In this document: piece after piece, positions 1,416 through 52,499 of the stretch
Layout: every line of letters starts with the position of its first letter
How positions within the stretch are numbered: the first letter of the stretch is position 1
Origin: Clostridia bacterium
Lineage (GTDB): Bacteria; Bacillota; Clostridia; Christensenellales; UBA1242
Direction of reading: 5' to 3'
Length of the DNA stretch: 64,000 nt
NCBI GenBank assembly: GCA_017625505.1
Contig: JAGAKV010000002.1
Coordinates: forward strand, 3,287 to 67,286
The notes under the pieces: generated by a model
Seen by the model: only the letters and a program-made list of their open reading frames with translations
Told to the model about the DNA's origin: nothing
Databases searched by the model: none
Made by a program: the position numbers and the translations under genes

Positions 1416-1582
1416 GTGTTTTCTCCTTTGATAATATTGTAGTAAATTACGCAGAAAAAGTCAAATGAAAAATAGGCAAGAAAAAATCATTAATTGAGGA
1501 AATTAATGATTTTGGCATAATGAATAAAGGTATATAATTTTTGTCAAAAAAAAACAAATAAAAATATTTTTTGTATTATTAT

Positions 1583-1705
1583 ATTTTTTAATGATATTTA
1601 CTTAATTTTTAATTAAATTTTAATTTTTAATGAAATTTGTCGATTTATATTTAATTTTTATTTATTTTTAATGAAAAATGTTGATTTTTGTTTGAATTTT
1701 ATTAA
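1583..1705. repeat. three degenerate ~40-bp direct repeats in an AT-rich spacer
   Basis: Core TTTTTAATGA occurs at 1585-1594, 1624-1633 and 1665-1674 (spacing 39 and 41 bp). Units 2 and 3 align over about 40 nt. Confidence 0.45.
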
Positions 1706-1767
1706 TTTTAATTGTGTTTTATAAAAAATAGATAATATTTATTTTTATAGTTTTTCTTGGCTTATGA

Positions 1768-2478: not shown

Positions 2479-2677
2479 TTTTTAAAATTCCTTTTATTTT
2501 TTAATAATTTTATCAAAAAATAGCAAAAAATGCAATAAAATAGCAAAAATAATTAAATTTTAATCAAAATATTTCGAATTAATAAACGGCGAAATTTTTA
2601 ATAAAAAAGAGTGTAAAAATAAGTTAAAAAAATATTTATTTATTATTTAATTAAATGCTATTTTGAGGCTATTTTGT

Positions 2678-2706
2678 TTGACTTTTTTTGTCATAAAATG
2701 TATAAT
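2678..2706 (+). promoter_or_regulatory. sigma-A type promoter of giant ORF 1
   Basis: TTGACT (2678-2683), 17-nt spacer, TATAAT (2701-2706), about 85 nt upstream of the ATG at 2792. Confidence 0.6.
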
Positions 2707-2791
2707 TTATTTAGATAAATTTATTATATAAATTTGTCGAATTTTATGTTTAATATTTGACAAAATTACAGATATTAAACGAGGAGGAATT

Positions 2792-5700
2792 ATGAAAAAG
2801 TTGTTCGTCGGACTTTTAAGTATATTTATGGTTTTAGGAGCATCGATTTTGTCGGCCTGTGGGCAACAAACTCCGCAGCTTCAAATTTATTATAATGAGC
2901 AGGCAGTCTCGGGGAGTATTCCTCTTGAGCTTGATAGTAGCGATCCGGAAGGTGGCTATATTTTGTTGTCTGCTGAACTGACTGGTGTGAGCGGCGGAGA
3001 AATTACAGCTTCTGCGGTAGGTGGATATGAGTCTGTCATTAAAGTGGAAGAAGAACGCTCTAACGGACAACGAAAATTTTTCAAAGTTACTGGACTTAGC
3101 GAAACGGATAATGGGCCTGCGGCTATAGTCTTCCGTGGTTCTCCAGGTGATGTTAGTCAATATGTGTATGTAGATGTTTTCTCTTATGTTTCTGCAATGA
3201 CACAAAAAGAAGATGAAACAGAAAATCAATTCCTCGTTTTAGGTGAAAAATATTTAATCGACGAAAAAGGTATTCACAGTGAAAGTGGAATCAATGACAT
3301 AACAGATGGACAACTTATTAAATTTTCTCCTTCTCAAAAATCAAGAAGAGCATTAAAATGGCAAATACAAAAGAAAAAAGCGGGCGGTGGATTTGAGCTT
3401 GTTGACGTGACAGAGTTTGTGCCCGATGAAAGTGTGATTGAAGAGGCTGCCGATGGCAAGCAGTATGTTCTATTGCAAGCAACTGATACTCTTGGCGCAC
3501 AAAATGCAACAACAACAGTTCGAATCGAAGTTTTAAACACTATTGCTTCTGAAGTTGAACTTGGGTGGAATTATGATCCTGCATCAGAGGTGTTTGATGA
3601 TATGGATGCAGATGGAAATGAGCTTGGCGTGAAGGATAATTCACATAAGCTTATTTCAAACATCTGGAAAAATGAACCAAAGTATATTGGATATGCTTGG
3701 GTGGGTTATGCTGGCACTGAACTTGAAATTACTCCAAATGTTTATAAGAAGATTGTTGAAAACGGTGCGGTGCGTTATGTTCGCCTAGCTGTTACTGAGG
3801 CTGAAAAGCTTGTGCAAAAAGATCAATCTTTGTGGCTTGAAAACAATCTGGTAATTTTGAAGGTGGGCAGCACTGCAAATTATACAATTTACAGTATTAA
3901 ATCAGCGACCTCAGAAAACGTGTCAGACTATCAAATTAGCTTCAATGTGGGGCATGTATCTTACAACTATGCGGGTAAGACGAAAAACATCTACATTGAT
4001 GTTATGGAAAAAGTAAATCAAGTGTCTGTATCGACTAAGGGGTATCTTGAAATTTTTGGTACTCCTGCGCTTGGAGAGGCTCCAAATGTTATTGTGGATG
4101 TTTATGATAACTATGCAACCATTGAAGGCGTTTCAAGAAGAGGAAATGGACAGTTGTTTAATGTTTCGCTTTCTCCAAATGTATTGGACGGGTCAAATAG
4201 ATATACAATTTCATACGATGCAACAAATGTTGTGTTGGATGGTGGAATCACAGAAGATGGCAGCACTCCAATAAAACTTTTCTATCGCGCTCCAAATGGA
4301 AATGTGGTAGAACTTGAAGTGGTAAATGAAGCTTCACTTTGGTATGTTGGAACACGAAATGCTGATGGCGGGATTGTCGCAACAGAGATTTCGGCTGGTG
4401 GCGGAATCTATATTCAAGCGTCAGACAAATTGAGATATCAAACAACTGAAAAACTTACCATAACTTTTACAAGTGTGGATAATGAAAATGCAGCAACTAC
4501 ATTTGGATTGAAACTGAAAAAGTCTGCGTCACAAGATGATTTTTCTGCAATGACAGAGCTTCAATTGGAATTTGATGAAGCAAGCAACGATTATAAGCTT
4601 GTGACTTACGGCCTTGATCCTGACGGTAACCCTGTGTATGCAGAGGTTGACGCCGCGCTTACAGGAAACCTTGTGATTGATAGTAGTGCGGAAGGAAAGG
4701 TGTATAGAAAGGCGTTCAAACTTTCTGGCCAAAGCAACATTTCCGACATCAAGCAAATCAACGGAATTGAAAATGTTGTCGTGAACAACTGGAAAGTTCT
4801 TGAATTTAGCAATGAAGTGAATAATGAGTATGTTATTTTCTCATTTGATGTTATTTTAAAACCATCTGCCTATGGAAAAACGCTTAAAGAGTTTTATTCG
4901 ATTGATCATGCAAACGGCAGCAGTACTGCATTTATTGACAATGCAACCCCTCCAGCATTAAGGGAAAGATTTACATTTGAAATTGTTTTACCTTTTACAG
5001 ATATCAACATCTATCCTGATATGGGTGAAAATCTTTCAAACTCAATTACTTCTGCTAAATACAGCCAAACGACAAACGACATTGAATATTTAATGCTTAA
5101 GAATAATACTGTAACACCAATTATTTTCTCGATGAAAGCAATTAATGGCAATTTGCCAAAGATTGACTACGCGAGTGTGAAATATTTAAGCTTTGAACAA
5201 TATCAAGCATTTGAAGGTGCGGAAAAGACAATACAAGACTTTATGAATCTGTATTACTCAAGTCAGGTAAGAGATTTAGAGTCTTTGACTTTGCATGATG
5301 CAATAAGTGACAACTTGTCTTCATTAAAGTTTGATGTTGATCTTGTTGGGACAAAAGGTGCAATTCTAACAAAAGGCGTAGGCTACGCATATGTTATCGT
5401 GTCATTTGGTGGACAGGATGAACATGGTGAGGAGCGCATTAAAACGAAAGTAATTTTGGTTGAAAGTTACAACGCACCAGAGCGGATGAGTGTTTCTCGT
5501 GATGCTGACAGAGAAGTTGAAGTTTATGCGATTGACAGCGTATCAAGCGAGCATGAACAATTAACATATAAAAATATTCAAATAGATTTTGATAATCCAA
5601 ACACAACGTATTGTGATGTTGAAAACATCAACATAAGAAGCATTGGAAATTCGCTTGATGCGAAATACCGAATTGATAGTGTGCAGGTTGGAAGTAGTGG

Positions 5701-8700
5701 ATTATCGTTTAAAATTACCGGCCTTACAACCGATGGCAGCAATGAAATTACTGACTCAATTGTTGTAGAATACATAATCAAAAAGGCTGTTGACGAAAAC
5801 AAAGATGGCATTATTGATCAAGATGAGTACGGTAGTGATCTTTATGAGACTGTTTATAAATTTGAAATAGCTCTTGCAATTACTGTAAAAAATGCACAAA
5901 GAATTGAAAGCGTAAAATGGACAAATGCTGACGCAGAGGGATTGTACTATCAGATTGGCTCTGATGAGCGTGATGCTTATTCAAGATATATAATTTTAGA
6001 GACAGCACCAACAAATGCTCAAAACTCTTCAATGCACGTGGTTATGACCGATAACATTGGAAATCCAGGTCTACAATTTGTTACTACAAACGACAGAATT
6101 GCAGAAAATACCATTGCTGTAAATTTAGATTCTGATGTAAAAGAAGGGCAAACAGGATATCTGTATATCCTTCCAGCAGATGCGGTATTTAATGGAAACT
6201 TAAAATATTATTATCAATCAGCAAAAGTTTCTGGAACCAAAATTCCATTTGATAGCGATGTGTTTAGTTCAACGGGAGAAGAAGTTGATGTCAATGTTGT
6301 GAATATTAAGATTTCAGAAATTGCACTTTACTATCAAGAGTTGATGACGTATGGATATTTCAAATCAAATAATATTGAAGGTGCTAAAAACGTTGCTTAT
6401 AAAGATGTGATTTTAAAAATCAAAGTTGAAGTTGCTGACGGTAGTAAAGAGCATCCATTTAGGGTCTTTAACGAAACGCAATTTAATGCAATACAAGATA
6501 ATCTTCACTATGTTGTTATGAACGATATTATTCTCACCGAAGAAAGATATCCTTTTGCAACATTTAGTGGTGGGCTTCAAGGTGTTACTCAAAACGTTAC
6601 AATCAAGTTGAATGGCTACAACTTTGCGGGAATACTTGAAGGCTCTATTGAAAATATTACGTTTATCGGAAATGTTGAAGGAAACGGATTTGTAGTTGAT
6701 GAAAACAAAGGAACGCTTTCCAACGTTCTTGTTGATACAAATGGAAATATGGCGAGCGTACTGACTGCTTCAGGTGTTGCAGGAGGGCTCGCTGGACAAA
6801 ACAGCGGAACAATCAGCGGCTGCGGCGTGCTTGGGCTTACTATTTCAGGAAGTGCAAATGTCGTTGGTGGGCTTGTTGGTAGCAATACTGGAAAGATTGA
6901 AAATTGTAGAGTAGAGTTTTACAACCTGCAAGTGGATGCTAATACATATGCTCCAAATACTATTAGCGGTACGAGTGTTGGCGCACTTGTTGGTCAAATG
7001 ACTGATGGAAGTATATATAGAGCGTTTGCTTATGACTATACGTTAAGCATGGCCAACAAAACAAATAGGGTGTTAATAGGAACTAACGTTGATCCTCTTG
7101 TTGAAACGCATACTGCAGGAAGAGTTGGTTATGTTTTCTCTGTTGTAGGCCTTAGCCAGACGAATGTGAATAACAACCTATTATTGGATTATTACTTAGG
7201 TTATTATAGCGGCGAAGTATATACCTTGACTAAAAAAGGAAGCAATTTTATTACTAGCGCTATGGAAGGCTTTGATGGAGAGATTAATGAAGGTCAACCA
7301 TATTTTCAAGATTTCCATCAAGAAAAAGCGATTTCTGCGGCGACTATTGATGGTTTGCAAATTAAAACAACCAAAGAGAATGGATATTACAAATCAATTC
7401 AAACTGACATTTTAGAAGGTGACATAATTGACGACAACAAGGGCATTCTTTTCTTCTATCAAACGGCAGTTGATAAGACTGACCTTTCTGCGGCAGAACA
7501 AGAGGATTTGGTAAAACTTAATACTATTTCAATTTCAGACCTTCTTGGAATCGGCGGGGATGCAAGTGGTATTATTGTTATTTCGTCAGATGAAAGAATT
7601 GTAAAAACAAAAGGCTCTTCAATAGAACTTTGCACCACTGGAAATGTTGATCTTACTATAAGCTCTAAGTATGATGTAAGCCTTAATAAAAAGATTAACA
7701 TCAAAGTTGTGTTGGCGATAACAAATATTTTGATCTCAAGAGTTGACGAAAATGGTCAAAATATTATGGTAGATGAAAACAAACACATCAACATTCAAAA
7801 AACAAAAGCTATTGATGTGACAGCATATCAGGCAAAGGATTATGTAAATCTTGGCAATCTCGCAAGAAAAATCAATCTTGTTACAAGTGAATTCGCTTTT
7901 GAATCAACCTCGGTTGCACAAGACGGCAATGACGACAACAAGATTAAGTCAACAAAAAATGGCAACATAATTAGGCTTGAGGCGGGAGAAAATTCTGTCA
8001 ACAGTAGGATTGAAGTTTATCCTCAAATGTTTACATCAGAAGATGATAAAATTTATCAAGATGCAATTTATAATGAATTTAAGCGTTCATTTATTGCAAA
8101 AGCAACTGAAGGACTTATTTCATTCAAACTTTCAGGAGAACAAATTCCTCTTACTCCATCAACAGTAAGCGAAATTAAAGCCAAAATTGAAACTACAGCT
8201 TTAAATGACACAGTTTATCCTGTAATACGACTGGATGGTCAGACAAAACCGATGGAAAGAAAGCTTGAAAGTGACAAATACGTTTATTATAATTCTTTAG
8301 GACAAAAGGTTCTAAGCGTATCACGTCAGCTTGTTTCAAGTACAGATTCGAAGCCTTATGTATATGAATACAAACTTATATTTGAAGTGCACAGCGAGTA
8401 CAAAAACAAAGTGGCAGATGACATGCGCTTTATTGTGTATTTGATGTCGGCAAGTGGAAGTTCATCTATGTCTTGGGGAGGAAGTTTTACTATCATTCTT
8501 TCAAGACAAACATTTACTAATATCGACGTCGCAAACATGAAAATAGATAGCATGATTATTGATGACGGAAGAGAAATTTATACAGTAAAAAAATATACAT
8601 CAACCCTTGCTCCAGGCAACTCTTCAATTCTTAAAGTAAATGTCAACCCTGAATATGCTTATTATGATTATGCTGAAATTTCTTACAGTGGTGCAAACGT

Positions 8701-11700
8701 TGCAAACGCTGTGAATATTGAGGCGGTTTCAGCGTATGCTGGTGGCAAATACGCAAGCCTTGATGCTGGCACCGGAACAACCGAACGGGTAGGCACAAAA
8801 CTTCGCTTTATTCCAGCAGTAAATTCGGAAACAAAAGATAATCTATACTTTAAGATTTGGATTAATACAACGGTTGATAGCGACACAACGCTTATGTTTA
8901 CAATTGCATTCTATCGCAATGGACAGGCTGAGGCGCTTGACTATGTAAACTACTATCTTGATGTTACTTATCTTGTAGAACCACAGGTGACTATCAATGG
9001 CCAAAGCATTGCATACATTGCAAAAGGATCTACAAGTCAAGTTAAGATTGAAGTGCTTGAAGATCAAAAACTTGAAACTCTTACTCTCTCTGGAGATGTC
9101 AATATTCAAGGAGTATCTCTCTCAAGTGTAAGTAAACCAGAGTTTGATCCAATTCGCAAAGTCAATGTCTATACAGCAACGCTCACTTGCGGAGTAAACG
9201 CGTCAACGGCAAACCGAAACAAATTCTATATTCAGGCAACCGTTTCAAGAGAAATGGATGGAGAGAAAGAATCTAAATCAACAATCGCTACTGCAGTTAT
9301 TGTTGACTTCAAGGTTGATGAAATTGCCATTGAAGGAGCAAATGATGGACAATTTACAGTTTGGCAGAACGTGTCAAAAAACTTCAATGTAGAATACAAC
9401 CTTCTACCAGAAAGTTATAAGATTACCAGTGATCAAACAATTGTAAATCAACTTATTGAAAATAAAGAGTTTTTCAAAACTTACCACTATTTCCCTGAAC
9501 GCGTTGATGTAAATAATGATTATCAAGCAGAATATTACATAAATTATGTAAAGAAAGACGGTGCGTGGGAACATCTTGATATAACAGATAGATTGTATGT
9601 GGTTACACCACAGAATAATCTTCCATATGATGATGCGACCTTGACACTTCCATTTACAATCACAAAATCAGCGAGTGGATCTATTCAGTTTAAAGGTACA
9701 CAAGCAAATGCGACGCCTGTGGAGATGATTCTTTATACATATTTGATTGCAGGCGGAATTCAAACAACAATTGAAACAAGATTTACTGTTGTTGTGAAAA
9801 CATATTCAGACCCTGATCTGCCTCTTCCAATCAAGACAGCAGAGGATTTCCTTAAGCTTGACCCTTCAAAGGAAAACATGGCTGAAACAATAGAACCACA
9901 TGACTATATTCTTGAAAATGACATCGTGCTTGAAAATTATATTCCTTTCAATACATCTCTTATCAGATCACTCGATGGAAATGGTTATACAATTTACATT
10001 AAGTCATTTGATTTAGAGACTCCATCTGCATTAAATTTAGCCCTCTTTACCGAAGTTACTTCGGTGGCGGCTACATCTACAGCAGAGGCAACTGATACTA
10101 CACTGAAAAACCTGCGAGTAAATTATTACAACGGCGGGCAACTTGTAATTGACATTTCAAGACATAAAGAAGTTAATATTGCCGGAATTGCCATTACAAA
10201 CAGCGGTGTAATAACAAACTGCGAAGTTGTGTCATTCTACGGCGAGCAACTTGCTGGAGAATCTATTGCTCAAGTATATGATGGAAATCAACCTCAGCCA
10301 AGCAGATTGCATTCAGCCGTAACAGGCTTTAATGTGTCTTACAGAGACGGAGCCAACACATCACAAGAAGCGCCACTTGCATTCAATAGTGACTGGAGCT
10401 CAAACATTGCAGGCTTTGTACTCAACAACGCAGGAAGCATTACAAATTCACGAGTGGGTGGTGACGAAGTATACTTGATTACAAGTGCATCAAGCACCAC
10501 AGGCGAGAAAAATGTAGACATTCAAGAGCTTGATAACTTCAGCATTGTTGGACAAGGAAATATTGCAGGCTTTGTTCTAAACAACAGCGGAGCAATTTCT
10601 TCCTCATTTGCTAAGAATATTGGCATCAAAAACAATTCAGCATCAACAAGCTTCTTCTCGGCAGGTTTTGTTGGACAAAACAGCTCAAATGCAAAGATTA
10701 TTACAAGCTACATCGAAGGTGTAAAATCATTTGGTGCAGGAGCGAGCGGCAAGAAATATAACTATGCAAACACAGGCTCATCCCTTCATTCGAATATGGG
10801 CGCGGTTGCTGGATTTATCTATCAAAATCAAGGACAAATTAAGGATTCTTATTCAAATATTCTCATTTCAAACTCTACAGACCTTGCGAAAGTTTACCTT
10901 GCATCTGGGTTTGTTTATGAAAATGAAGGATACCTTGAAAACTGCTACTCAGCATCTCAAGTGGCAAATGCAAACTACTCTCAAATGAACTTCTCAGGTG
11001 TAGATCAAAATGGTGATCTGCGCACTGTAGGAAATTATACAAACTGCTACTTCTTCAATGTAGATTTATATGTTGAAGAGGCGCAAGAGGTCGTTGATAC
11101 TTCAACAGAAACTCAATACAACACAGGCGCACTGCTCATCAGAAATCCAAGCATAGCATCAAGTTTCTATGGTTTTGCAATTGCAGAAACAGGAGATACT
11201 CACAAGGATGGAATTTGGGTAATTGATGAGACTTATGGCATCAAACTAGTAGAGCCTGATTATATTTCAGTTTCACATAGATATAAAAATTACATAGCTT
11301 CTGCTGACGGTGAAACCCCATCATTAAGCGAAGATATTGTGGATGAAAATGGCAACTTAGTTACTCTGAAATATATCCTTCCTTATGCAACGTTAGTTGT
11401 AGGCAACACAAAGAAGATTGACACTTCTCTTGGTGGCAGCAACAACCCAATTATTATTGCCGACGCACAAGATTGGCAAGATATTAGTGGTGCTTCAAAG
11501 TCATCGGTGATCAGCGAACACTTGCAAAACAACAATATTAGCGGCGTGTATAGGCTTGTAAGAGACATCGATTTATCACTTCTTAAGCAAGATCTTCTTT
11601 CGACAAGCAAGACATTCAGCGGTGCACTTTATGGAAACGGCTTTACAATAAGCGGAATTTCAATTTCACAATCAAACGAGGATGTTTTGGATAGCGATGT

Positions 11701-14700: not shown

Positions 14701-17700
14701 TGTAGATAATGCATATATAGGTGGACTTGTAGGGCATCACAGCGGTGCACCTTTGACGCTTACAAACTTTACAAATGTCACATTTGACGTACAAAACTTG
14801 ATTTGCGCACGTGAAGCTGTTTTAGGTGGGTTGGTTGGATATACAAACGCACAGCTTGACATCTCATCAAATGAAGCAGTCGAGATTTCTGGTAACGTTA
14901 ATGTATCATGCGAAGAAACTGCTGGTGAGATTGTTGTTGGTTCTGTTGTCGGAAAGACTGATGCGACAGTTGCTCTTGACGGGGCAAATACAAGCAAGAG
15001 TTTATCAATTGTGGGCGACATTACATCAACGCTTAATGCAAACATCACTGCGAAAAATGCTACATTTGGTGGAATTGTTGGACAAATTAAGTCTGCAAAC
15101 GCCGAAGGCGGAGCAGAAACTGGTCCTAAGTCAGGAATTATTGCACAAATTGGTGATGGAGGAAGAGTGCTTTCATACAATGGAAGTGTAACTTCTCAAA
15201 ACGCACAGAGTGTTAAGTTTGGCGGAATTGTGGGCGAGTTTGACGCTAAGGGTGATGGAGAGGACAACACTGTCGAGCTTGCAATAAATAAGACATCATT
15301 TGGCGGACATTTCACAATTAAAAACTCACAAGCCGCAACAATAACTGTAGGCGGAACAATAGGATCTGTTTGCTCAGACAACGCGATTGCGAATATACAA
15401 CTTTTCCGTGGCTACAACTATGGAAATGTATATGTAGAGTACGATGCAACGCTTATATCATTAGCTGAATATAATTTTGGTGGAATTATAGGTGAAGTTG
15501 GGGCTGCCAAATACACTATCAGCGAAAACTATAGTGCGGTTTCAAGCCATAACTCAAGATATTTATCATCTTCAAATAGAGCTCACGCTTTATTTGGTTA
15601 TGGTGATCCTACAGTAAATGTAGGTGGTTTTAAAACAACAAACTTCTACAGCCATGCAGTATGTTTATTGACTGACGACAATGGTACAGATATTGGCTAT
15701 AAAACATCATATAGTGACGAAAGACTTGGATATGATAGGACTGAATCACTTTCAGATGAAAATGATATAATCTCTGCAATTTTAGCAGGAACAGGAAAAA
15801 CATTGGAGCAGCTTGGTGCTGATACAGCAGGTCACAAACTGAATCCAAAAGAACTTAAAAACACAACAAGTGTTGCTGACCTAGGCAAGACTGACACAGA
15901 GACAGATCATGTGTTTGAAAAATTGACATACTATGTACTTAAAGAGAATATTACAATATCAAATAAAACATTCAAGTTGACAGATGCAGCCGTTGTTGGA
16001 GATGGCTTTAAAGTAAACTTTGAAAATACAAGCGCAGCAATACCAGCACTCTTTACTGATGCAACAGGATATGCATATATTTCATCGCTGATTGAAGAAG
16101 TTAGTGTGAAGTTTGACGATTCTCAAAACGTGCAAGTTGCAGGCTTGGCTGTGCGTTTTGGCGGAAATACACAAATTTACGCAGTCAACGCATACGGCAA
16201 CATGGATGTTCATTCGTCGACAAAAAATGTATTTGTTTCAGGACTTGGGCAAGATATCGCAGGAAAAGTCGCAGACTCTTCAACTGATATTGATATGATT
16301 GGCCGAATGGCAAATAATGCATGCACACAAGCACATGAGCATAATTCTGCTTGGTACGATTTCTCTCAACTTACTGGATTTGTTGATACAAGTTATCCTT
16401 CCGAGGCAAACGGATATGCAATGTCTTACATTGAAAACTGCTTTGCTCTTGGAAGCGTGCAAACACTTGCTGGAAATAAAATTTGGCCGTTTGTTCAACC
16501 AAACAGTAAGGGTGACTACAAAACGAAGACGCAAAATTGCTATAGCGCAACACGCATTGACTATAGAAACTATCTTGATCTTGCTGATGCTGCGGTTGTA
16601 AGCGAATATTCTGGGGCTTCTGCTGCTAATGTATATTTCAACAGCTCAGTGGATAATGCAGGAGTGATGTTTGATTTAGATTCTCTTAATCTTGCAGTAT
16701 CTAACAGCGCGATTCAAACATTTAATTATAAAGATATTAACTCTATCTTTATAGACGCAACTCGCAGCGAGGATAAAAAAGTGTGGATACGAGATATGAA
16801 TTTCAACTATTACTATCCAACGCTTAAGTATCAATATCTCAAGATGTCGTCATACTCAACTCAAAGCGAGCCAATTCTTGACTGTGGACATGAGACTTGC
16901 GATCAATCAACTTACGATTGCTATGTAAAAAATTACACATATACAAGAGTGCCTAATGGTCTTACTCTCAACACAGAAAATCTTTCAAAGGGTTTCTACA
17001 TGATTACACATGCAGGGGCACTTGCAGAAAGACTTGCAGAAGCAAAAGATGGACATAACGGCTGGCAGCAAAATTATGCAATCAAATATGATATGGATTT
17101 AAGCATATATGATGTTGATAGCGATGCTACTACAACACGCGTGAGTCCACTTAAAGATATAACATTTACAGGAAAACTTGATGGTCAAGGAAAAACTATA
17201 CGCGGATTGACACACAACTTGTTTGCTGCTGTTGGCTCAGATGAAACATCAACTGACACATGTTATGTTCGCAATTTAAGATTGACGGGTGCTAATGTTG
17301 TGAATGTAGACGGTATTTTAGCTAAAACAATTACAAAAGCTGAAGTGTCAAACATGACAATCGGTGGTTTAATGACAATAGATAGTACATACGCAGACGC
17401 ATATGTAGGCGCGCTTGCTGGAATTTCATACAGCGCTGAAATTAATACGACTACAAGTACAACACAAATTAAGGTGGAAGACTGTCAACACGGAATTGAT
17501 GTAGGCGGAATTGTAGGAAAAGCAGAAACCAGCACAAATATAAGATACTGCTCAAACTATGGACCAATTTCAGTTACACATAGTGTTGCTAATCAACAAT
17601 CAACTGTTGGTGGAGTGGTTGGTGCAATAAACTATTCAAATGTTTACAATTCATACAATGCAGCATCTGTTCTCAACAACTATAAAGGCAGCGTAGTAGG

Positions 17701-20700
17701 TACATTCTTTACTGGAGGAATTGCTGGACATGCTGATGTTGATAATGCAGAAGGCGAAACAAACAACTGCACAATTGATGGCTGCTACAATAGTGGTATG
17801 ATTAAGTCAGGGCATAAAGGAAACAAAATAAGCGGAACTACAACTGATGCTGATGGAAATACAATTGATACAAACATTTTCGCAAATAATACTGACCTTA
17901 ATCGAGGCTCTCATGCAGGAGGAATTCTTGCATTCCAAGGTGATAGTGGAGATGTGGCAATTTCAAACTGCTATAATGAAGGCACGGTTGAAGCACTTGC
18001 AGAAAATGGAACGTTTGAAGTTGTGTATGAAGAGCCTTACGTAAAAATCAATCAAACATCATCACAAAACGTTGTGGCATATGCAATCGGCCCAGGTGCG
18101 AATAATACATGTATCGCTAAAATTGAAGAAAATGCTGATGGAAGAACATCTGTTCTTGCTAATGGCGCTGCAACAGCAAAAGATACTGCAGTATATAGGA
18201 TGACTTATGATGCCAATACATGGGTGCCAGAGTACAATTATAATAACCTATATTATGCAACAGCTTGGGCACGAAGTGGGAAAAATCATTATGTTGGCGC
18301 TCAGATAAGATATTATCGTATTGCAGAACCTGTGCGTCAAGAAAATGGTGTAACTACGCATTCATTCAGTATTGTAGATAAGGAAAACACACGAAACTTT
18401 TTGAATCTTCCTTTGAATGTGGTTTATACTGCTGATTATAGGCTTGGCGTCATGATGTATGCAGATCAGGCTAGAAAACTAAAAAATATTAATCCTGATA
18501 GACTGCTGTCCTTATACAACTATTCGTCAGGAAGTGTGATTGTTTGCTTCGTTGGTGCGAAAGGTGACTTTACCGAAAGATTTAGTATGCCTGTCAATGC
18601 ATTGGATGGGTTATCATCATATAATGGCACATTAAATCAATATGACAACATCTTGGCAAATTATATTCATCTTGCAAAACCAACTTCTGATGAATCAATT
18701 CAAATAAAGAATAAAGAATTTGGATTGCAAGGAGAATTGTCAAATGGCACAAAAACAGCTGAAGAGATTAAGCAAGAAACGAAAACGAGGAAGTCAGAAA
18801 CAAATGAGACGCTAAAAGTTGGGGGGACGAAATTCTATCTTGCATCAAACAACAATCTTGATATTTTCCAAGCGGGGCTCAATAAAAATAATTTCACAGT
18901 TACAATCAAGAAACAGGAAAACGTTTCTTATCAAGTATCATCTGTAAAAACTCGCGACACAAACAAAAACTTACATTTTGGTAATATTGGTGAGTGGATA
19001 GATGATGGTGCAAATCAAACAACCACACTTGATGTGTATTTTGCAGAATCAGACATTTCACAAGCGATTACAGTGCAAGTAGCCGCTGAGTATAGAAATA
19101 ATGTTGAAATTGATGTTTCAAATCTTTCGTTCTATACAACTGATTATGGAATTGGGCTTGGAATTACCGATGAACAGTGGAAAACAGCAATAACCACATT
19201 GAATAGGGTGGATATTCAAGATGCTAATGATAACACATATAACGCATATGAAATAACCGCAGCAAGCCATAGTCTTTCTACAGGAGACGCGCTATATTTA
19301 GTTTATGATTATCAATTTGATGATTTTGTCTACATTCCAAATGCAAAAAGCGTTGAAAATGGGACTAAGGTTAACACTATTTCGTTGGCAGATCTTAATG
19401 GTCTATCTTGGAAAGTAACACTTAATAGTCAAATTAACACTGAGGTTATGAAATTTACAAACGGTATGTCTTATAGCGCCTCTTTAAATGTTGAACCCGC
19501 TACGATTATCCAGTATCAAGAAACAATTATTGGCACGAACAAGATTCTTCCAAACAATTTGGCAGGCAATGTGCTTGCTTTAAATGGAGATACTGTTGTT
19601 GCAGGAAGCTCAAACGGAGGAGAAACTTGGTATGGCGCAGAAAAAGTTGAGCTTGTAAATATAGCAAATGGACAAGAAATTCAGCTTGTAGAGCCAGTAC
19701 ACAGTGTGTCTAGTGATATAACATCTACAGCCTCTGGAACATATGGATTCGCAATTAATCAATCATTGGTAGAGTTCTTTGATGACGCGGAAAAGACTCT
19801 TACTAAAGATGGAGTAAAGATTGAGAATGTAGAATATAGCCTAAATGGAAATATAGTAACAATTTCTGGATTAGAGCCAAATGAACAATATAGTTTAAAC
19901 TACACTTATCCACAAATCTACCGTAAAGTTGCAACAGTAGATCAAAACAATGTTATTAGTTGGGAAACTGACTATAGTGATAGTCCGGACAATATACTGC
20001 GCATTGTGGACGCCGAAGGAACCGAACTAGCAAGACGTACTGAGGGGATATGGGATAATAACGTGGAAGTCTCAATTCGTTATCGCGCGAACGATGCTAC
20101 ACGTTATATTCAAGAACAATCAGCAACCTGGAATACGACTTATGAAAAAGAATATTCAGTTTCAGACTACACGATTACAGTATCTTATAGAGCAACAGAA
20201 TCAAGCGTTGTTAAGACTTACCGAAACGAAGAATCTGGCGTTGAGATTAATATAAATTACTCCACGACCGTTGATTACGACACTATAGTAGGATACGAGA
20301 TTATTAAAGAACATTTACCAGATGAATTGAATTATATTGGAGTCTTTACTTTACAAATTGGTGATCGCTTGATTGAGCATAATGCGTTTGTTGAAACTTC
20401 AGAATATCAGCAGCAGCTTAATGAAGGCGAAGAAGTATCTATAGAAGAAAATGCTGAGTTGAGATTTACGGCTTATCAAACACATAGGTTTGAAAAAGAG
20501 TTTGATCAGTATTCAGTTAGTCTTTATAGTTCGGCCACAAATGAATGGTATGGTTATGATTATGTGAAGGATAATAATGCCGAAAATGGATACACTGAAC
20601 AGTACTATAAGTATGCAGTCGAAAGACACGATTATGGTGAAGATGGTACTGAAGATTTGATATCAACAACAGACTTAAATGGGAATGGAGATTGGTGCGT

Positions 20701-22333
20701 AGTTGAAAATGATGTGCACAGCAGGTATGTTTACGTAAATGATCTTAATTATCAAGCGATTTCTATGGAAGACTTTAAGGCTACGGTGCAAGGTACCTTA
20801 AAAGAAGAAACGTATGTAGAAACAAAAGATTCAACGGCAGAATTGGTGGATATTATAGGCGTTACTTTATATCCTTCAGAGTTTAGTTATGTTGCTGAAG
20901 AGCAGATTGAAACTATTATGCTAAGCAATGCGGCTGTTGCAATGACTGTCAATAATCTTGCATATACAGATGTAGAATATAAAATAGAATCACAACTAGA
21001 TAAAAAGGGATATGAATATGCTCTAGATAATGCAAGTGCTAAAGCTACAATTACGATCTATGCGAAGTCATTTGATAACTTGGCTAAAGAAAGCTTTGTT
21101 ATTATTGGATCGAACACAATATCAATGCCTCAAAAAGTAGATGAAGATTGGATTCTTACGAAATCCAATACAATAGAAATAAATCCTATAATATTTAACT
21201 GCGATGTTTCATTAGGTTTTGTTGAAAACTCTGCGGAGCTTAGTGTTGATATTATAGGAAATGGATATAATCTCATTTATAATGGAAAATCGCTCTATTC
21301 AAAAACGACACAGAAAATCAATGGACTAAACATCTTGGCGGAAGTTGAAGTTTCGTCAGGCAATCATTCATATTTATTCCAGGATGGTATAGATGGTGGC
21401 TCCTTAAGTGATATTAATATGTACGGCACAATCAATATTTCAACAAGCGCGATTACTGGTGATATTGAAAATATTTTGATCAACAACGCTTCCGGGGAGG
21501 TTGAAAACGTTGCTACATATGTTGGTATTGATTCAAGTTACTATAACGGATCACTAACACTTGCAAAACAACAAAATATCACAAGAAAAGAGGAAGTGTA
21601 TGTTGCTGCCGATGGGCGTGATAGATTCTTATATCGTAAAGAAAACAATCTTTACAGCACTGATAATAATCTTGGTACGCAAAGTTCAGAATGCTTTAAA
21701 ATTTATTATACAGGTGGTGATCTTGTTAATCAAGATGCCAAAGGTAACGATGGCGAAAACAAAGCATACGCAAATTATAACCTTAAAAAGAAAGACTTTA
21801 CAATGTGTGAGACGGATAATGGTTATAAGTATTCGCTTGACATCTACGTTTCTTCTCGCCTAGCATTTACAAAATCTACTAGTTCTGGTGTAAATGAATA
21901 TGGCTATACTAATGGCTATTGCCGGGATACTTATTTTGCCGGCAAACAACTTCTCAGTGCAGATTCTATAAAAGATGGTGTAATTGAAAAAGTTTCTTCG
22001 CCATTTACAGACTGGGAAACAAGTGGAAGATTGAATAAAAAATACACAGATTTATCACAGGACAGTAATCTTATATTTGGTGTCAAGGGAGAAGACAACA
22101 ACAAAAAGATTATTCTAGATGATCAAGGGGTTTCATATGATGAGTGGTGGATTTGGAACAAACCACATGGAATGGCAAATAACAATAATTTTAGTAATGC
22201 ATTACTTACAGGCATTGATAATGCGGGCACTGTAAACGCTGCTCCAACAGGAATTGCTTTGTGTCCAGCGGATCCAGAGTTAGAGTACCAACAAATGACA
22301 AACTTAAGCTTTATTGCACGCTATGGCAAGTAG
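2792..22333 (+). CDS. giant surface lipoprotein (6,513 aa) with reiterated GLUG-type beta-helix modules
   Basis: Uninterrupted 19,542-nt ORF with SD cgaGGAGGaatt-ATG. Lipoprotein signal MKKLFVGLLSIFMVLGASILSA|C, with Cys23 at 2858-2860. Many GGLVG/GGIVG/GGLAG turns followed by N/C-rich rungs, for example VGGLVGSNTGKIENC. No LPXTG or other C-terminal anchor. TAG stop. Confidence 0.9.
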   Translation: MKKLFVGLLSIFMVLGASILSACGQQTPQLQIYYNEQAVSGSIPLELDSSDPEGGYILLSAELTGVSGGEITASAVGGYESVIKVEEERSNGQRKFFKVTGLSETDNGPAAIVFRGSPGDVSQYVYVDVFSYVSAMTQKEDETENQFLVLGEKYLIDEKGIHSESGINDITDGQLIKFSPSQKSRRALKWQIQKKKAGGGFELVDVTEFVPDESVIEEAADGKQYVLLQATDTLGAQNATTTVRIEVLNTIASEVELGWNYDPASEVFDDMDADGNELGVKDNSHKLISNIWKNEPKYIGYAWVGYAGTELEITPNVYKKIVENGAVRYVRLAVTEAEKLVQKDQSLWLENNLVILKVGSTANYTIYSIKSATSENVSDYQISFNVGHVSYNYAGKTKNIYIDVMEKVNQVSVSTKGYLEIFGTPALGEAPNVIVDVYDNYATIEGVSRRGNGQLFNVSLSPNVLDGSNRYTISYDATNVVLDGGITEDGSTPIKLFYRAPNGNVVELEVVNEASLWYVGTRNADGGIVATEISAGGGIYIQASDKLRYQTTEKLTITFTSVDNENAATTFGLKLKKSASQDDFSAMTELQLEFDEASNDYKLVTYGLDPDGNPVYAEVDAALTGNLVIDSSAEGKVYRKAFKLSGQSNISDIKQINGIENVVVNNWKVLEFSNEVNNEYVIFSFDVILKPSAYGKTLKEFYSIDHANGSSTAFIDNATPPALRERFTFEIVLPFTDINIYPDMGENLSNSITSAKYSQTTNDIEYLMLKNNTVTPIIFSMKAINGNLPKIDYASVKYLSFEQYQAFEGAEKTIQDFMNLYYSSQVRDLESLTLHDAISDNLSSLKFDVDLVGTKGAILTKGVGYAYVIVSFGGQDEHGEERIKTKVILVESYNAPERMSVSRDADREVEVYAIDSVSSEHEQLTYKNIQIDFDNPNTTYCDVENINIRSIGNSLDAKYRIDSVQVGSSGLSFKITGLTTDGSNEITDSIVVEYIIKKAVDENKDGIIDQDEYGSDLYETVYKFEIALAITVKNAQRIESVKWTNADAEGLYYQIGSDERDAYSRYIILETAPTNAQNSSMHVVMTDNIGNPGLQFVTTNDRIAENTIAVNLDSDVKEGQTGYLYILPADAVFNGNLKYYYQSAKVSGTKIPFDSDVFSSTGEEVDVNVVNIKISEIALYYQELMTYGYFKSNNIEGAKNVAYKDVILKIKVEVADGSKEHPFRVFNETQFNAIQDNLHYVVMNDIILTEERYPFATFSGGLQGVTQNVTIKLNGYNFAGILEGSIENITFIGNVEGNGFVVDENKGTLSNVLVDTNGNMASVLTASGVAGGLAGQNSGTISGCGVLGLTISGSANVVGGLVGSNTGKIENCRVEFYNLQVDANTYAPNTISGTSVGALVGQMTDGSIYRAFAYDYTLSMANKTNRVLIGTNVDPLVETHTAGRVGYVFSVVGLSQTNVNNNLLLDYYLGYYSGEVYTLTKKGSNFITSAMEGFDGEINEGQPYFQDFHQEKAISAATIDGLQIKTTKENGYYKSIQTDILEGDIIDDNKGILFFYQTAVDKTDLSAAEQEDLVKLNTISISDLLGIGGDASGIIVISSDERIVKTKGSSIELCTTGNVDLTISSKYDVSLNKKINIKVVLAITNILISRVDENGQNIMVDENKHINIQKTKAIDVTAYQAKDYVNLGNLARKINLVTSEFAFESTSVAQDGNDDNKIKSTKNGNIIRLEAGENSVNSRIEVYPQMFTSEDDKIYQDAIYNEFKRSFIAKATEGLISFKLSGEQIPLTPSTVSEIKAKIETTALNDTVYPVIRLDGQTKPMERKLESDKYVYYNSLGQKVLSVSRQLVSSTDSKPYVYEYKLIFEVHSEYKNKVADDMRFIVYLMSASGSSSMSWGGSFTIILSRQTFTNIDVANMKIDSMIIDDGREIYTVKKYTSTLAPGNSSILKVNVNPEYAYYDYAEISYSGANVANAVNIEAVSAYAGGKYASLDAGTGTTERVGTKLRFIPAVNSETKDNLYFKIWINTTVDSDTTLMFTIAFYRNGQAEALDYVNYYLDVTYLVEPQVTINGQSIAYIAKGSTSQVKIEVLEDQKLETLTLSGDVNIQGVSLSSVSKPEFDPIRKVNVYTATLTCGVNASTANRNKFYIQATVSREMDGEKESKSTIATAVIVDFKVDEIAIEGANDGQFTVWQNVSKNFNVEYNLLPESYKITSDQTIVNQLIENKEFFKTYHYFPERVDVNNDYQAEYYINYVKKDGAWEHLDITDRLYVVTPQNNLPYDDATLTLPFTITKSASGSIQFKGTQANATPVEMILYTYLIAGGIQTTIETRFTVVVKTYSDPDLPLPIKTAEDFLKLDPSKENMAETIEPHDYILENDIVLENYIPFNTSLIRSLDGNGYTIYIKSFDLETPSALNLALFTEVTSVAATSTAEATDTTLKNLRVNYYNGGQLVIDISRHKEVNIAGIAITNSGVITNCEVVSFYGEQLAGESIAQVYDGNQPQPSRLHSAVTGFNVSYRDGANTSQEAPLAFNSDWSSNIAGFVLNNAGSITNSRVGGDEVYLITSASSTTGEKNVDIQELDNFSIVGQGNIAGFVLNNSGAISSSFAKNIGIKNNSASTSFFSAGFVGQNSSNAKIITSYIEGVKSFGAGASGKKYNYANTGSSLHSNMGAVAGFIYQNQGQIKDSYSNILISNSTDLAKVYLASGFVYENEGYLENCYSASQVANANYSQMNFSGVDQNGDLRTVGNYTNCYFFNVDLYVEEAQEVVDTSTETQYNTGALLIRNPSIASSFYGFAIAETGDTHKDGIWVIDETYGIKLVEPDYISVSHRYKNYIASADGETPSLSEDIVDENGNLVTLKYILPYATLVVGNTKKIDTSLGGSNNPIIIADAQDWQDISGASKSSVISEHLQNNNISGVYRLVRDIDLSLLKQDLLSTSKTFSGALYGNGFTISGISISQSNEDVLDSDVTSIGLFAKIVKKSSSSLESSKSPALVSNVNIEIVQVTAGNVSAVGGLAGVAKDASLINIDVAFADDSIVEGLHYAGGLVGFAYGNNKLKNIVVTNPNVLADTRTEDEGGRYYIESAQQLSSLRTQTATDINKTLKTAGYSYAGGVAGFVDNYTDQNNKGFENELNQTIKYEINNIKVEGNVNVKGQVVGGLFGIAGYGTNINDAGLIINADAEASSKIASTRYFAGGIVGQSFGRLSRVYAGHENSVQEAIEDEMADFYAGDTSAQRGVLDLFDTSKTDSKNHQIAVGGLIGYAGSGLLEISYSKVNVTALSAKYAGGIVGFMDVAKVQTPYAVAPEALYTSSSSSDAQKETTKYFINEVFATGDVRANEMAGGLIGAIKGKNSDIKLLAVNALNYITLYNYQTETYEEPVAGRCEISSALKINSFVGKFLYEDSYGFEREEAFVERRYEKSANNNQTAVLLQSGADSLDGYISFLLGRENYGSIGEEGAGGVERLATVGRYNYYSFDGNKVYLKRFGENLLISNQEYLLEQENKIDFETGMGANELNIYSIASPDQYTSSTVGRTYTQMGFINSGVWSYANWYHPLDDLFPSVKLQEIYNVVYLDVYNAAEIFEKMSNSDMVVIVRGLKTATSDVSQLESYSDIKIYKNEDGSFYVLQADGVHATSSQSHHFNAIRGFSGKIIGGRYPQGATSKVKIVSHAGNFIDSVAEGFAVSDQTFRYEKVKTLKAGSSSPDEVEYIAVKNSLFVDGSIAGADISNLTLEIASQVVTTAESDGGNYGLVATSIQSTNIDTLSIVDVWSYGEDKALFRVQTGVDSLSSTTNVGLVAGQLIQNSEEKLMIVRNLAVSKTYFNSGAMPLIDVDTGTNGKAVADLNVGGYFGLITKAAEAGRSIEELRVYAASYAANRKAQFILQSATVNNVLNVGGFAGTITDVDSLTVQTDLTMSSDIEYKLPETVKDLRIGNLVATLANGAALRVDGGSATIKSSLAFKEGSTNDANVDNAYIGGLVGHHSGAPLTLTNFTNVTFDVQNLICAREAVLGGLVGYTNAQLDISSNEAVEISGNVNVSCEETAGEIVVGSVVGKTDATVALDGANTSKSLSIVGDITSTLNANITAKNATFGGIVGQIKSANAEGGAETGPKSGIIAQIGDGGRVLSYNGSVTSQNAQSVKFGGIVGEFDAKGDGEDNTVELAINKTSFGGHFTIKNSQAATITVGGTIGSVCSDNAIANIQLFRGYNYGNVYVEYDATLISLAEYNFGGIIGEVGAAKYTISENYSAVSSHNSRYLSSSNRAHALFGYGDPTVNVGGFKTTNFYSHAVCLLTDDNGTDIGYKTSYSDERLGYDRTESLSDENDIISAILAGTGKTLEQLGADTAGHKLNPKELKNTTSVADLGKTDTETDHVFEKLTYYVLKENITISNKTFKLTDAAVVGDGFKVNFENTSAAIPALFTDATGYAYISSLIEEVSVKFDDSQNVQVAGLAVRFGGNTQIYAVNAYGNMDVHSSTKNVFVSGLGQDIAGKVADSSTDIDMIGRMANNACTQAHEHNSAWYDFSQLTGFVDTSYPSEANGYAMSYIENCFALGSVQTLAGNKIWPFVQPNSKGDYKTKTQNCYSATRIDYRNYLDLADAAVVSEYSGASAANVYFNSSVDNAGVMFDLDSLNLAVSNSAIQTFNYKDINSIFIDATRSEDKKVWIRDMNFNYYYPTLKYQYLKMSSYSTQSEPILDCGHETCDQSTYDCYVKNYTYTRVPNGLTLNTENLSKGFYMITHAGALAERLAEAKDGHNGWQQNYAIKYDMDLSIYDVDSDATTTRVSPLKDITFTGKLDGQGKTIRGLTHNLFAAVGSDETSTDTCYVRNLRLTGANVVNVDGILAKTITKAEVSNMTIGGLMTIDSTYADAYVGALAGISYSAEINTTTSTTQIKVEDCQHGIDVGGIVGKAETSTNIRYCSNYGPISVTHSVANQQSTVGGVVGAINYSNVYNSYNAASVLNNYKGSVVGTFFTGGIAGHADVDNAEGETNNCTIDGCYNSGMIKSGHKGNKISGTTTDADGNTIDTNIFANNTDLNRGSHAGGILAFQGDSGDVAISNCYNEGTVEALAENGTFEVVYEEPYVKINQTSSQNVVAYAIGPGANNTCIAKIEENADGRTSVLANGAATAKDTAVYRMTYDANTWVPEYNYNNLYYATAWARSGKNHYVGAQIRYYRIAEPVRQENGVTTHSFSIVDKENTRNFLNLPLNVVYTADYRLGVMMYADQARKLKNINPDRLLSLYNYSSGSVIVCFVGAKGDFTERFSMPVNALDGLSSYNGTLNQYDNILANYIHLAKPTSDESIQIKNKEFGLQGELSNGTKTAEEIKQETKTRKSETNETLKVGGTKFYLASNNNLDIFQAGLNKNNFTVTIKKQENVSYQVSSVKTRDTNKNLHFGNIGEWIDDGANQTTTLDVYFAESDISQAITVQVAAEYRNNVEIDVSNLSFYTTDYGIGLGITDEQWKTAITTLNRVDIQDANDNTYNAYEITAASHSLSTGDALYLVYDYQFDDFVYIPNAKSVENGTKVNTISLADLNGLSWKVTLNSQINTEVMKFTNGMSYSASLNVEPATIIQYQETIIGTNKILPNNLAGNVLALNGDTVVAGSSNGGETWYGAEKVELVNIANGQEIQLVEPVHSVSSDITSTASGTYGFAINQSLVEFFDDAEKTLTKDGVKIENVEYSLNGNIVTISGLEPNEQYSLNYTYPQIYRKVATVDQNNVISWETDYSDSPDNILRIVDAEGTELARRTEGIWDNNVEVSIRYRANDATRYIQEQSATWNTTYEKEYSVSDYTITVSYRATESSVVKTYRNEESGVEININYSTTVDYDTIVGYEIIKEHLPDELNYIGVFTLQIGDRLIEHNAFVETSEYQQQLNEGEEVSIEENAELRFTAYQTHRFEKEFDQYSVSLYSSATNEWYGYDYVKDNNAENGYTEQYYKYAVERHDYGEDGTEDLISTTDLNGNGDWCVVENDVHSRYVYVNDLNYQAISMEDFKATVQGTLKEETYVETKDSTAELVDIIGVTLYPSEFSYVAEEQIETIMLSNAAVAMTVNNLAYTDVEYKIESQLDKKGYEYALDNASAKATITIYAKSFDNLAKESFVIIGSNTISMPQKVDEDWILTKSNTIEINPIIFNCDVSLGFVENSAELSVDIIGNGYNLIYNGKSLYSKTTQKINGLNILAEVEVSSGNHSYLFQDGIDGGSLSDINMYGTINISTSAITGDIENILINNASGEVENVATYVGIDSSYYNGSLTLAKQQNITRKEEVYVAADGRDRFLYRKENNLYSTDNNLGTQSSECFKIYYTGGDLVNQDAKGNDGENKAYANYNLKKKDFTMCETDNGYKYSLDIYVSSRLAFTKSTSSGVNEYGYTNGYCRDTYFAGKQLLSADSIKDGVIEKVSSPFTDWETSGRLNKKYTDLSQDSNLIFGVKGEDNNKKIILDDQGVSYDEWWIWNKPHGMANNNNFSNALLTGIDNAGTVNAAPTGIALCPADPELEYQQMTNLSFIARYGK

Positions 22334-40486: not shown

Positions 40487-40590
40487 GATGAGATTATACA
40501 TTAAAAATGTATAAAAATGCAAAATCTTTGAAAATTGATTGTAAAAAAGGAATAAAAAATGGTAATATATATTTGAAAAGGGGGTATTTT

Positions 40591-47542: not shown

Positions 47543-47551
47543 GAGGAAATT

Positions 47552-51159: not shown

Positions 51160-51169
51160 GTTTTCTCCT

Positions 51170-51790: not shown

Positions 51791-51803
51791 GTTTTCTCCT
51801 TGT

Positions 51804-52118: not shown

Positions 52119-52131
52119 TTGCTTTATCCTT

Positions 52132-52485: not shown

Positions 52486-52499
52486 TTCTCTCTCCTTAT

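Follow-up and report, generated by a model that had tools for sequence, protein, structure and literature searches.

A giant adhesin-like lipoprotein of uncultured Clostridia and its newly described family

A 64,000-nt stretch of DNA from a Clostridia bacterium of the UBA1242 group (contig JAGAKV010000002.1 of assembly GCA_017625505.1; hereafter the window) carries a giant gene whose product is a predicted surface lipoprotein. The open reading frame (ORF) lies on the forward strand at 2792..22333, starts with ATG, encodes 6,513 aa, and contains one stop codon, at its end. Given the frequency of stop trinucleotides in the window (0.051), the chance of 6,513 consecutive open codons is ~1e-149. 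S, G, N, V, T, and A each account for 7.6-8.8% of residues, and the mature lipoprotein is computed to have 6,491 residues, a mass of 708.5 kDa, and a pI of 4.6. Together with a second giant ORF at the far end, the gene fills about 44% of the window, the figure given in a preliminary description of this DNA. We class the product as a giant surface adhesin-like fibre, a kind of protein already known, whose family is newly described here. An antisense ORF of 158 aa inside the gene (14200-14676, minus strand) is almost certainly spurious.

Start signals and integrity of the giant gene

Translation of the giant gene is predicted to start 4 nt downstream of a Shine-Dalgarno (SD) sequence, GAGGAGG, at 2781-2787. 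The spacer that separates the gene from a divergent ttcA-like gene is AT-rich, and promoter-like matches within it are not more numerous than expected by chance. In an alignment with six other species, the -35 hexamer, the -10 hexamer, and the leader/SD block are the only conserved islands of this spacer. Both hexamers are kept in six of the seven species, while the spacer overall is just 51% identical. These islands support the predicted promoter and start codon, and with them the strong SD and the TTGACT-17-TATAAT promoter of the preliminary description. The leader (2713-2800) folds as two hairpins with a minimum free energy of -17.8 kcal/mol (z -4.6), a stability reached by none of 200 shuffled sequences. 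The second hairpin is a 13-bp stem whose end is the first G of the SD. The 3′ arm of this stem together with the SD block (TACAGATATTAAAC-AGGAGG) is almost invariant in the seven species, even though their giant proteins are just ~55-65% identical. This hairpin could serve in mRNA stabilisation, in translation control, or as a protein operator.

Contigs from other samples were retrieved through exact-protein look-up of both flanking genes. One of these, ENA scaffold_2431, comes from a different sample and spans the entire ORF, from which it departs at 12 substituted positions and by no indel; the separate gene call made on it likewise gave a product of 6,513 aa. Four more partial contigs add further variants in the gene, again without indels, and the identical protein is also found in NCBI nr on a 67.5-kb contig. 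When single-nucleotide variants (SNVs) are pooled, 21 distinct changes are obtained, 15 synonymous and 6 nonsynonymous (pN/pS 0.11; p = 2e-6 against neutrality). All 12 differences of scaffold_2431 within the gene fall in aa 881-3034 (window 5434-11891), and the distal 9.9 kb (12378-22333) and the upstream flank are identical, so clustered a distribution that it looks like a recombination patch between strains. Comparison of these samples establishes the ORF as an evidently functional chromosomal gene held under purifying selection.

A chimeric assembly, or a decaying pseudogene that merely looks intact, has to be considered for a sequence drawn from short-read metagenome assemblies, more so as several public contigs end within the giant gene and truncated copies exist at P0003 and L053. 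Such an artefact is effectively refuted by the concordance of two assemblies from different samples over 19.5 kb without an indel, by the low pN/pS, by the negligible chance of a random ORF of this length, and by the retention of an ORF open for >5,500 aa in about 70 species. Moreover, Tandem Repeats Finder and direct-repeat scans revealed no tandem, dispersed, or direct repeats in the 19.5 kb of the gene, which makes a repeat-driven chimera implausible. The intact 19.5-kb ORF of the preliminary description thus withstands an independent assembly as well as the tests of selection and of length conservation in dozens of orthologues.

Lipoprotein signal, family, and architecture

The N-terminus of the giant protein consists of the signal peptide MKKLFVGLLSIFMVLGASILSA followed by Cys23. 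Its layout, MKK-LFVGLLSIFMVLGASI-LSA-C23, has the positive n-region, the hydrophobic h-region, and the lipobox [LVI][ASTVI][GAS]C of bacterial lipoproteins, and the signal peptide is the sole transmembrane (TM)-like hydrophobic segment of the protein. An MKK-hydrophobic-[LSA/YA/TA]C start is present in all 73 orthologous loci that have the gene start in view, and an equivalent N-terminus is found in the homologues P0001, P0002, P0004, P0007, P0010, and P0011. These features mark the protein as one predicted to be exported through Sec with a type-II (lipoprotein) signal. At the other end (...CPADPELEYQQMTNLSFIARYGK), neither LPXTG nor a hydrophobic tail was seen when the last residues were read by eye, and no motif scan was run. 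Pfam and NCBIfam gave no SLH or other wall-binding or anchor domain, and Pfam gave no C-terminal beta-barrel or N-terminal two-partner secretion (TPS) domain. Acylation at Cys23, as predicted, is the only visible tether of the protein, in agreement with the lipobox and the lack of any other anchor claimed in the preliminary description. Neither Lgt nor LspA was identified among the scanned ORFs of the window; outside it no search was made.

Beyond what the preliminary description had recognised, the giant protein belongs to a large conserved family, is free of repeats, and has a fast-evolving C-terminal fifth. A four-sequence alignment of its most conserved part (aa 2335-2800; 466 aa), hereafter module 2, was searched against one genome per GTDB species and returned 89 relatives, of which 80 loci were kept. 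The hosts comprise at least 80 species, all of them uncultured Clostridia/Bacillota metagenome-assembled genomes (MAGs) from animal and human guts, including 'Candidatus Caccovivens sp.' and 'Christensenella sp. UBA1242'; L055 and L090 are loci of family carriers in named UBA1242. The gene start lies 6.7-7.2 kb upstream of the module-2 match in all 73 loci with the start in view. At nearly all loci the ORF is still open at the end of the fetched DNA, after 5,800-6,160 aa, and complete members measure 5,580-6,910 aa. The nearest GTDB species ('Clostridia bacterium') is 66% identical in module 2 and 81% in TtcA, and the closest relative is a MAG from roe-deer colon, which, along with the 'XIEF21-1' labels of the samples, gives a tentative hint of a ruminant gut as the source. 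The divergent ttcA-like gene is kept upstream of the giant gene in 36 loci. A radC-like gene follows 44 nt past the stop codon with no terminator-like site between, and it is also found downstream of the orthologue on L010.

Word-index searches with aa 1201-3800 and aa 4001-6513 retrieved five homologues, four of them truncated or partial, and every one that includes the N-terminus has the lipobox. P0001 is collinear with the giant protein from residue 1 to 4396, and P0007, a full-length orthologue of 6,626 aa, is collinear over residues 1-6389 at 44% identity. A word-index search with the N-terminal 1,200 aa gave no match, which reflects the sensitivity limit of the method and not orphan status, since P0001, P0002, and P0007 align from residue 1. 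Every source annotates family members as 'hypothetical protein' only, and no published description was found. On these searches, the giant protein appears as the first described member of a large uncharacterised family and not as an orphan. At the locus L009 (JGI 3300077746, 1-19918), a distant relative consists of two giant genes of lipoprotein type in tandem, which code for 5,037 aa and 3,305 aa with Big_2 and GLUG. The pair lies just upstream of rpoB and rpoC, which implies that the family has paralogues at other chromosomal positions. On L008, SpoIIID lies near the homologue.

The GLUG-type turns and the long beta-solenoid or Ig-like fibre proposed in the preliminary description are supported by profile searches and structure prediction. 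The Pfam GLUG family (PF07581) scored 31.4, 26.4, and 21.7 bits in three 800-aa tiles, the latter two being tiles 7 and 8, above the gathering score of 20.5 bits. Sub-threshold scores were 20.0 bits in module 3 and 13.7 bits in tile 6. Tile length matters in this test, as pieces of 3,300 aa or longer gave no GLUG match. A strict regular expression found 15 GLUG cores. The modules share a plan in which a cap at the start, '...DGNG-aromatic-x-I...', leads into coils of the G-G-hydrophobic-hydrophobic-G or AGF type. A profile of the module-2 cap matches aa 1218-1347 in module 1 in register (independent E-value 9e-6) and aa 2885-2983 in module 3 (1e-3). GLUG cores occur at aa 1330 and 1358 in module 1, eight times between aa 3014 and 3342 in module 3, and at aa 3895, 3976, 4904, 4939, and 4974 in the stretch of modules 4-6, where cap-like motifs lie at aa 4401 and 4796. 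A final cap-like motif at aa ~6154 constitutes the proposed module 7. We propose seven right-handed beta-helix modules, which by their approximate boundaries take up ~40% of residues. Modules 1, 3, 4, and 6 are supported by GLUG, module 2 by the AlphaFold model, and modules 5 and 7 by the cap motif alone (Table 1).

AlphaFold2 (AF2) prediction of aa 1601-2800 from five sequences gave a mean predicted local distance difference test (pLDDT) score of 53. Most of aa ~2345-2750 reached a pLDDT of 70-96 with the regular 3-5-residue strands of a beta-helix, a confident prediction, and the ~740 residues before module 2 were modelled with low confidence as almost pure strand (pLDDT mostly 30-80). Foldseek matched this model to generic multi-Ig, cadherin, and S-layer chains (E 1e-7 to 1e-4; TM-scores just 0.06-0.25) and named no specific structural homologue. 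These matches are compatible with a string of beta-sandwiches, and aa 1501-2334 are read as a probable Ig-like string; an all-beta or Ig-like fold is assumed for aa 24-1217 by analogy with aa 1601-2340. No Pfam Big match was found in the giant protein; Big_2 is present in P0004 and its tandem neighbour.

Across 35 species, module 2 averages 46% identity. G, N, and F predominate among its invariant columns, joined by Y, L, I, A, V, and S; charged residues are invariant at just three positions, D43, D61, and K105, all in the cap. This pattern has a structural rather than a catalytic look. Internal repeats of the protein were not found by blastp at 1e-5, and phmmer shows just faint similarity between modules. 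Besides GLUG, no Pfam family was detected. NCBIfam and PHROGs searches of all tiles returned nothing meaningful, the lone row being Sta1 from NCBIfam at 13 bits (E 0.079; cut-off 80 bits). PDB sequence searches gave no matches with the protein, with the 35-sequence profile of module 2, or with a 4-sequence profile of the C-terminus. The earlier statement that no characterised adhesin has the same architecture stands after these Pfam, NCBIfam, PHROGs, and PDB searches.

Conservation along the protein was measured by determining, for each part, how many of 79 family ORFs can be aligned to it (Table 1). Identity to P0007 drops from ~60% at aa 2000-3000 to ~30% at aa 5500-6500, with collinearity kept. 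Both gradients identify the part farthest from the lipid anchor as the fast-evolving part. Outside the closest relatives, the C-terminal ~1,400 aa defy alignment. When the last 1,200 aa were searched exhaustively with HMMER against 1.84 billion representative proteins, only the cluster of the giant protein itself and the orthologue P0007 were recovered. The distal region has no Pfam or PDB match, even with the 4-sequence profile, and an AlphaFold model of the last 454 aa without an alignment was unusable (pLDDT 30). In the variable distal region of two relatives, P0005 (C-terminus, locus L010) and P0010 (near aa 5480), TM-like hydrophobic hairpins occur. Gly/Asp-rich 'GxDGxxG' runs follow the last beta-helix cap in P0005, P0010, and P0011 (C-terminal ~300 aa). 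The giant protein itself has no distal hydrophobic segment and only a degenerate Gly/Asp stretch.

Table 1. Features of the giant gene and its product, the share of family members aligned along the protein, and the second giant ORF. Positions are those of the window; aa numbers are those of the giant protein.
Feature	Position	Strand	Remarks
Promoter-like TTGACT-17-TATAAT	2678..2706	+	-35 at 2678-2683, -10 at 2701-2706; 11/12 consensus positions
5′ leader hairpin abutting SD	2747..2787	+	13-bp stem 2747-2781, SD 2781-2787
Lipoprotein signal peptide, lipobox L-S-A-C	2792..2860	+	Cys23 = predicted acylated N-terminus of mature protein
Membrane-proximal region, aa 24-1217	2861..6442	+	moderately conserved; no Pfam or NCBIfam match
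Proposed beta-helix module 1, aa ~1218-1500, cap and GLUG coils	6443..7291	+	GLUG 31.4 bits, cap profile, GLUG cores
Inter-module all-beta region, aa 1501-2334	7292..9793	+	AF2 strands, Foldseek; ~95% of members align
Proposed beta-helix module 2, aa 2335-2800	9794..11191	+	AF2; most conserved part of family
Proposed beta-helix module 3, aa ~2885-3400	11444..12991	+	cap profile, eight GLUG cores, Pfam GLUG 20.0 bits
Proposed beta-helix modules 4-6 with linkers, aa ~3830-4270, ~4360-4700, ~4740-5075	14279..18016	+	boundaries approximate
Fast-evolving distal region, aa ~5100-6513	18089..22330	+	includes last cap-like motif IIGNGYNLIY (aa ~6154) and unassigned C-terminal ~180 aa
Stop codon	22331..22333	+	
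Alignment share, aa 1-750			~50% of family members
Alignment share, aa 1000-3250			~95% of family members (~90% at aa 1000-1250)
Alignment share, aa 3250-5000			~75% of family members
Alignment share, aa 5001-5250			33% of family members
Alignment share, aa 5251-5500			8% of family members
Alignment share, beyond aa 5500			~0 family members
Second giant ORF	55124 to beyond 64000		at least 2,959 aa; runs off the window

Known giant proteins and a possible role in attachment

The closest analogues of the clostridial giant are Giant1-5 of Apilactobacillus kunkeei, surface proteins of 3,000-8,000 aa that make up several percent of the small genome (1.5 Mb) of a host-associated member of the Bacillota (PMC12863079). 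These proteins are likewise elongated and contain a beta-solenoid, are presumed to function in adhesion, and resemble serine-rich repeat adhesins (PMC12863079). Behind a Sec/SPI signal, they have a single beta-solenoid at the N-terminus and a long stalk of internal repeats, and their DUF5776/SH3b-like C-terminus binds the wall (PMC12863079). The clostridial giant, in contrast, is oriented the other way round, its lipid anchor being N-terminal and its C-terminal end variable, and it has no repeats and seven proposed beta-helix modules. No sequence similarity to the A. kunkeei Giants was detected, and the Pfam scan found no DUF5776.

Megadalton-scale surface fibres exported through Sec are also known in Bacillota as sortase-anchored giant adhesins, such as Ebh. 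Adhesins of this type carry many near-identical repeats and a C-terminal LPXTG or TM anchor, whereas the clostridial giant lacks repeats and would be anchored by N-terminal acylation. The GLUG-type G-G-hydrophobic-hydrophobic-G coils recall GLUG proteins, the rod-forming Fap2 of Fusobacterium, and chlamydial Pmp autotransporters, in which a right-handed beta-helix rod is the stalk of an adhesin. However, as type V autotransporters, Fap2 and the Pmp proteins belong to diderm bacteria, carry a beta-barrel at the C-terminus, and need an outer membrane. The clostridial giant has no barrel or TPS domain, has an N-terminal lipid anchor, and appears to alternate beta-helices with Ig-like stretches.

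APD1/APD2 of Amoebophilus, an organism dependent on other cells, also join a signal peptide and lipobox to an N-terminal part that is conserved and a C-terminal part that varies strongly (PMC3482391). In contrast to these proteins and to polymorphic toxins, the clostridial giant lacks an immunity gene and any recognisable effector or toxin domain, and its variable part is ten times larger and diverges gradually. The giant proteins of Omnitrophota also combine a very large gene with a reduced genome, a predicted partner-dependent lifestyle, and beta-helix filaments (preprint 10.1101/2023.11.21.568195). Their predicted sizes extend to 85,804 aa, and they are reported to contain many TM regions as well as mostly divergent SecA DEAD helicase domains (10.1101/2023.11.21.568195), whereas the clostridial giant contains no such domain and carries one lipoprotein signal only. 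Giants of Clostridia reported in the same preprint are RCC1 or Listeria-Bacteroides repeat proteins and differ from the lipoprotein family described here (10.1101/2023.11.21.568195). The giant protein lacks the defining features of the LPXTG, SLH, serine-rich repeat protein (SRRP)/Giant, autotransporter, and polymorphic-toxin families. It does show the signal and the conserved lipobox Cys of bacterial lipoproteins, the Pfam score of GLUG-motif proteins, and, in module 2, the predicted fold of a right-handed beta-helix fibre.

Genomes of UBA1242, of which Ca. Caccovivens is a member (PMC8035907), measure 0.67-1.6 Mb and are mostly below 1 Mb (PMC12306168). They lack biosynthetic pathways, some glycolytic steps, and standard transporters, including those for sugars, but retain sporulation genes, and their owners are predicted to be obligate symbionts or parasites dependent on other cells (PMC12306168). 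Given this partner-dependent context, the conservation of a giant lipoprotein family, and its variable distal end, we lean toward the giant lipoprotein being an attachment fibre that binds a partner or host surface. The mature 708.5-kDa protein would hang from the cytoplasmic membrane by acylated Cys23 as a long, non-repetitive, almost all-beta fibre in which beta-helix modules are separated by Ig-like stretches. Such a fibre would cross the wall and reach far beyond it, to a rough estimate of 150-200 nm when fully extended, based on the typical dimensions of beta-helices and Ig domains. Residues ~1000-5000 would then form a conserved stalk and the membrane-distal C-terminal ~1,400 residues a specificity end, which would bind a surface structure on a partner bacterium, a host cell, or a glycan matrix.

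Several points weigh against an attachment role. Adhesion is inferred from topology, architecture, and the conservation gradient, not observed, and a genome of <1 Mb is presumed for the host of the giant gene. The Ig-like assignment comes from the model with a mean pLDDT of 53 and from Foldseek matches with TM-scores <0.25. No ligand-binding domain, lectin, carbohydrate-binding module, or known adhesin domain was detected in the distal region. In addition, the distal half has no SNVs in the sampled population, compared with 12 in aa 881-3034, so the tip is not hypervariable between strains of one species.

A protein of this kind might instead serve the envelope itself, as a surface coat, an S-layer-like scaffold, or a spacer of wall and envelope in a minimal-genome cell, with no partner bound. 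The Foldseek matches include the S-layer proteins SbsB and SbsC, and the protein is acidic, all-beta, and conserved across the family, with no binding domain found. Nevertheless, S-layer proteins usually measure 40-200 kDa, no SLH or other wall-binding module is present, and a pure scaffold would not account for an alignable stalk next to 1,400 distal aa that have diverged past recognition; a purely structural role is therefore unlikely. A surface enzyme array, in which some or all beta-helix modules would be pectate-lyase-fold lyases or hydrolases that degrade dietary or host glycans or the wall of a partner, draws on the fact that many lyases, GH28 enzymes, and phage depolymerases are right-handed beta-helices. 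The giant proteins of predatory Omnitrophota have moreover been linked to cell-wall degradation (preprint 10.1101/2023.11.21.568195). We regard such an array as quite unlikely, since Pfam, NCBIfam, and PDB gave no lyase or hydrolase match even with the 35-sequence profile, the few charged invariant residues of module 2 are confined to the cap, and UBA1242 genomes lack standard sugar transporters (PMC12306168).

The conserved N-terminal four-fifths and polymorphic C-terminus would also suit a surface-anchored polymorphic effector or toxin, in which N-terminal trafficking and stalk regions present a variable C-terminal effector to a neighbouring cell in the manner of CdiA/Rhs or APD1/APD2. Lipobox-anchored effectors with conserved N-termini and polymorphic C-termini have been described (Zhang et al. 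2012, PMC3482391). TM-like hairpins and stretches rich in Gly/Asp occur in the variable part of some relatives; the giant protein itself, however, has no distal TM segment. Toxin cassettes usually span 100-300 aa, whereas the variable part here spans ~1,400 aa, in which no known toxin domain was found. Downstream there is no immunity-like small ORF, the next gene being radC-like with conserved synteny, and divergence of the C-terminus is gradual and collinear in close relatives, with no sign of a swapped cassette. An effector role is accordingly improbable.

If the giant lipoprotein is an attachment fibre, a more far-reaching and doubtful proposal is that the family forms an attachment, perhaps nutrient-access, organelle of episymbiotic Clostridia, genome-reduced bacteria of the UBA1242 type that would live attached to other cells of the gut in the manner of Patescibacteria. 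The giant lipoprotein would be the fibre by which a partner is found and held, the fast-evolving 1,400 distal residues would determine the range of partners, and in some lineages the hairpins of P0005 and P0010 would insert in the partner membrane. If true, it would give a first molecular entry to episymbiosis within the Bacillota. UBA1242-type Clostridia, uncultured cells that have genomes mostly of <1 Mb and lack standard transporters, are widespread in animal and human guts. In a genome of this size, the giant gene alone would be about 2% of the DNA. So costly a gene, which keeps its length, its lipid-anchor signal, and its upstream neighbour (36 loci) across dozens of species, makes a strong candidate for the central surface structure of this lineage. 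The protein is also unusual in itself, with ~6,500 residues that show no sequence repetition and an N-terminal lipid as the sole apparent tether. Its practical uses may include an antigen for labelling or enriching the cells, the distal region as bait for a ligand or partner, and the gene as a marker of the family.

Other features of the window

The second giant ORF (Table 1) has an N-terminal TM helix in place of a lipobox and no Pfam match. The possibility that the two giants are paralogues was ruled out, as no similarity between them is detectable, and the second is also unlike P0001-P0005. By these comparisons it appears to be a separate uncharacterised giant protein. Genes for PARCEL-repeat (DUF285 / 'Liste_lipo_26') surface proteins lie at 26227-28386, 31641-33500, and 39284-40444, interleaved with uvrB, uvrA, and metG. 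Counting the giants too, surface proteins dominate this chromosomal stretch.

A cluster of rsmH, a 224-aa ORF with no family match, and a SpoVD-like penicillin-binding protein (PBP) is followed by Zn_peptidase_2 peptidases and not by the usual mur/fts genes. A 921-aa protein that begins with a CvpA/Colicin_V domain and a tandem pair of Zn_peptidase_2 (PF04298) paralogues are encoded at 40507-43272 and 46835-48259, respectively. A wall-bearing, host-associated member of the Bacillota with a specialised surface would fit both the SpoVD-like PBP and the surface lipoproteins of the PARCEL/DUF285 type. No Rfam families or tRNAs were found in the window, and thus no T-box leader upstream of metG or glyQS, an absence that is unusual for Bacillota. 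On the minus strand, 50821-52967 contains five small Lys-rich ORFs of 117-206 aa, most of which show hydrophobic TM-like stretches by eye. The 206-aa ORF, the sole one of the five scanned against family models, gave no match, and the five may constitute a paralogous cluster of membrane proteins.

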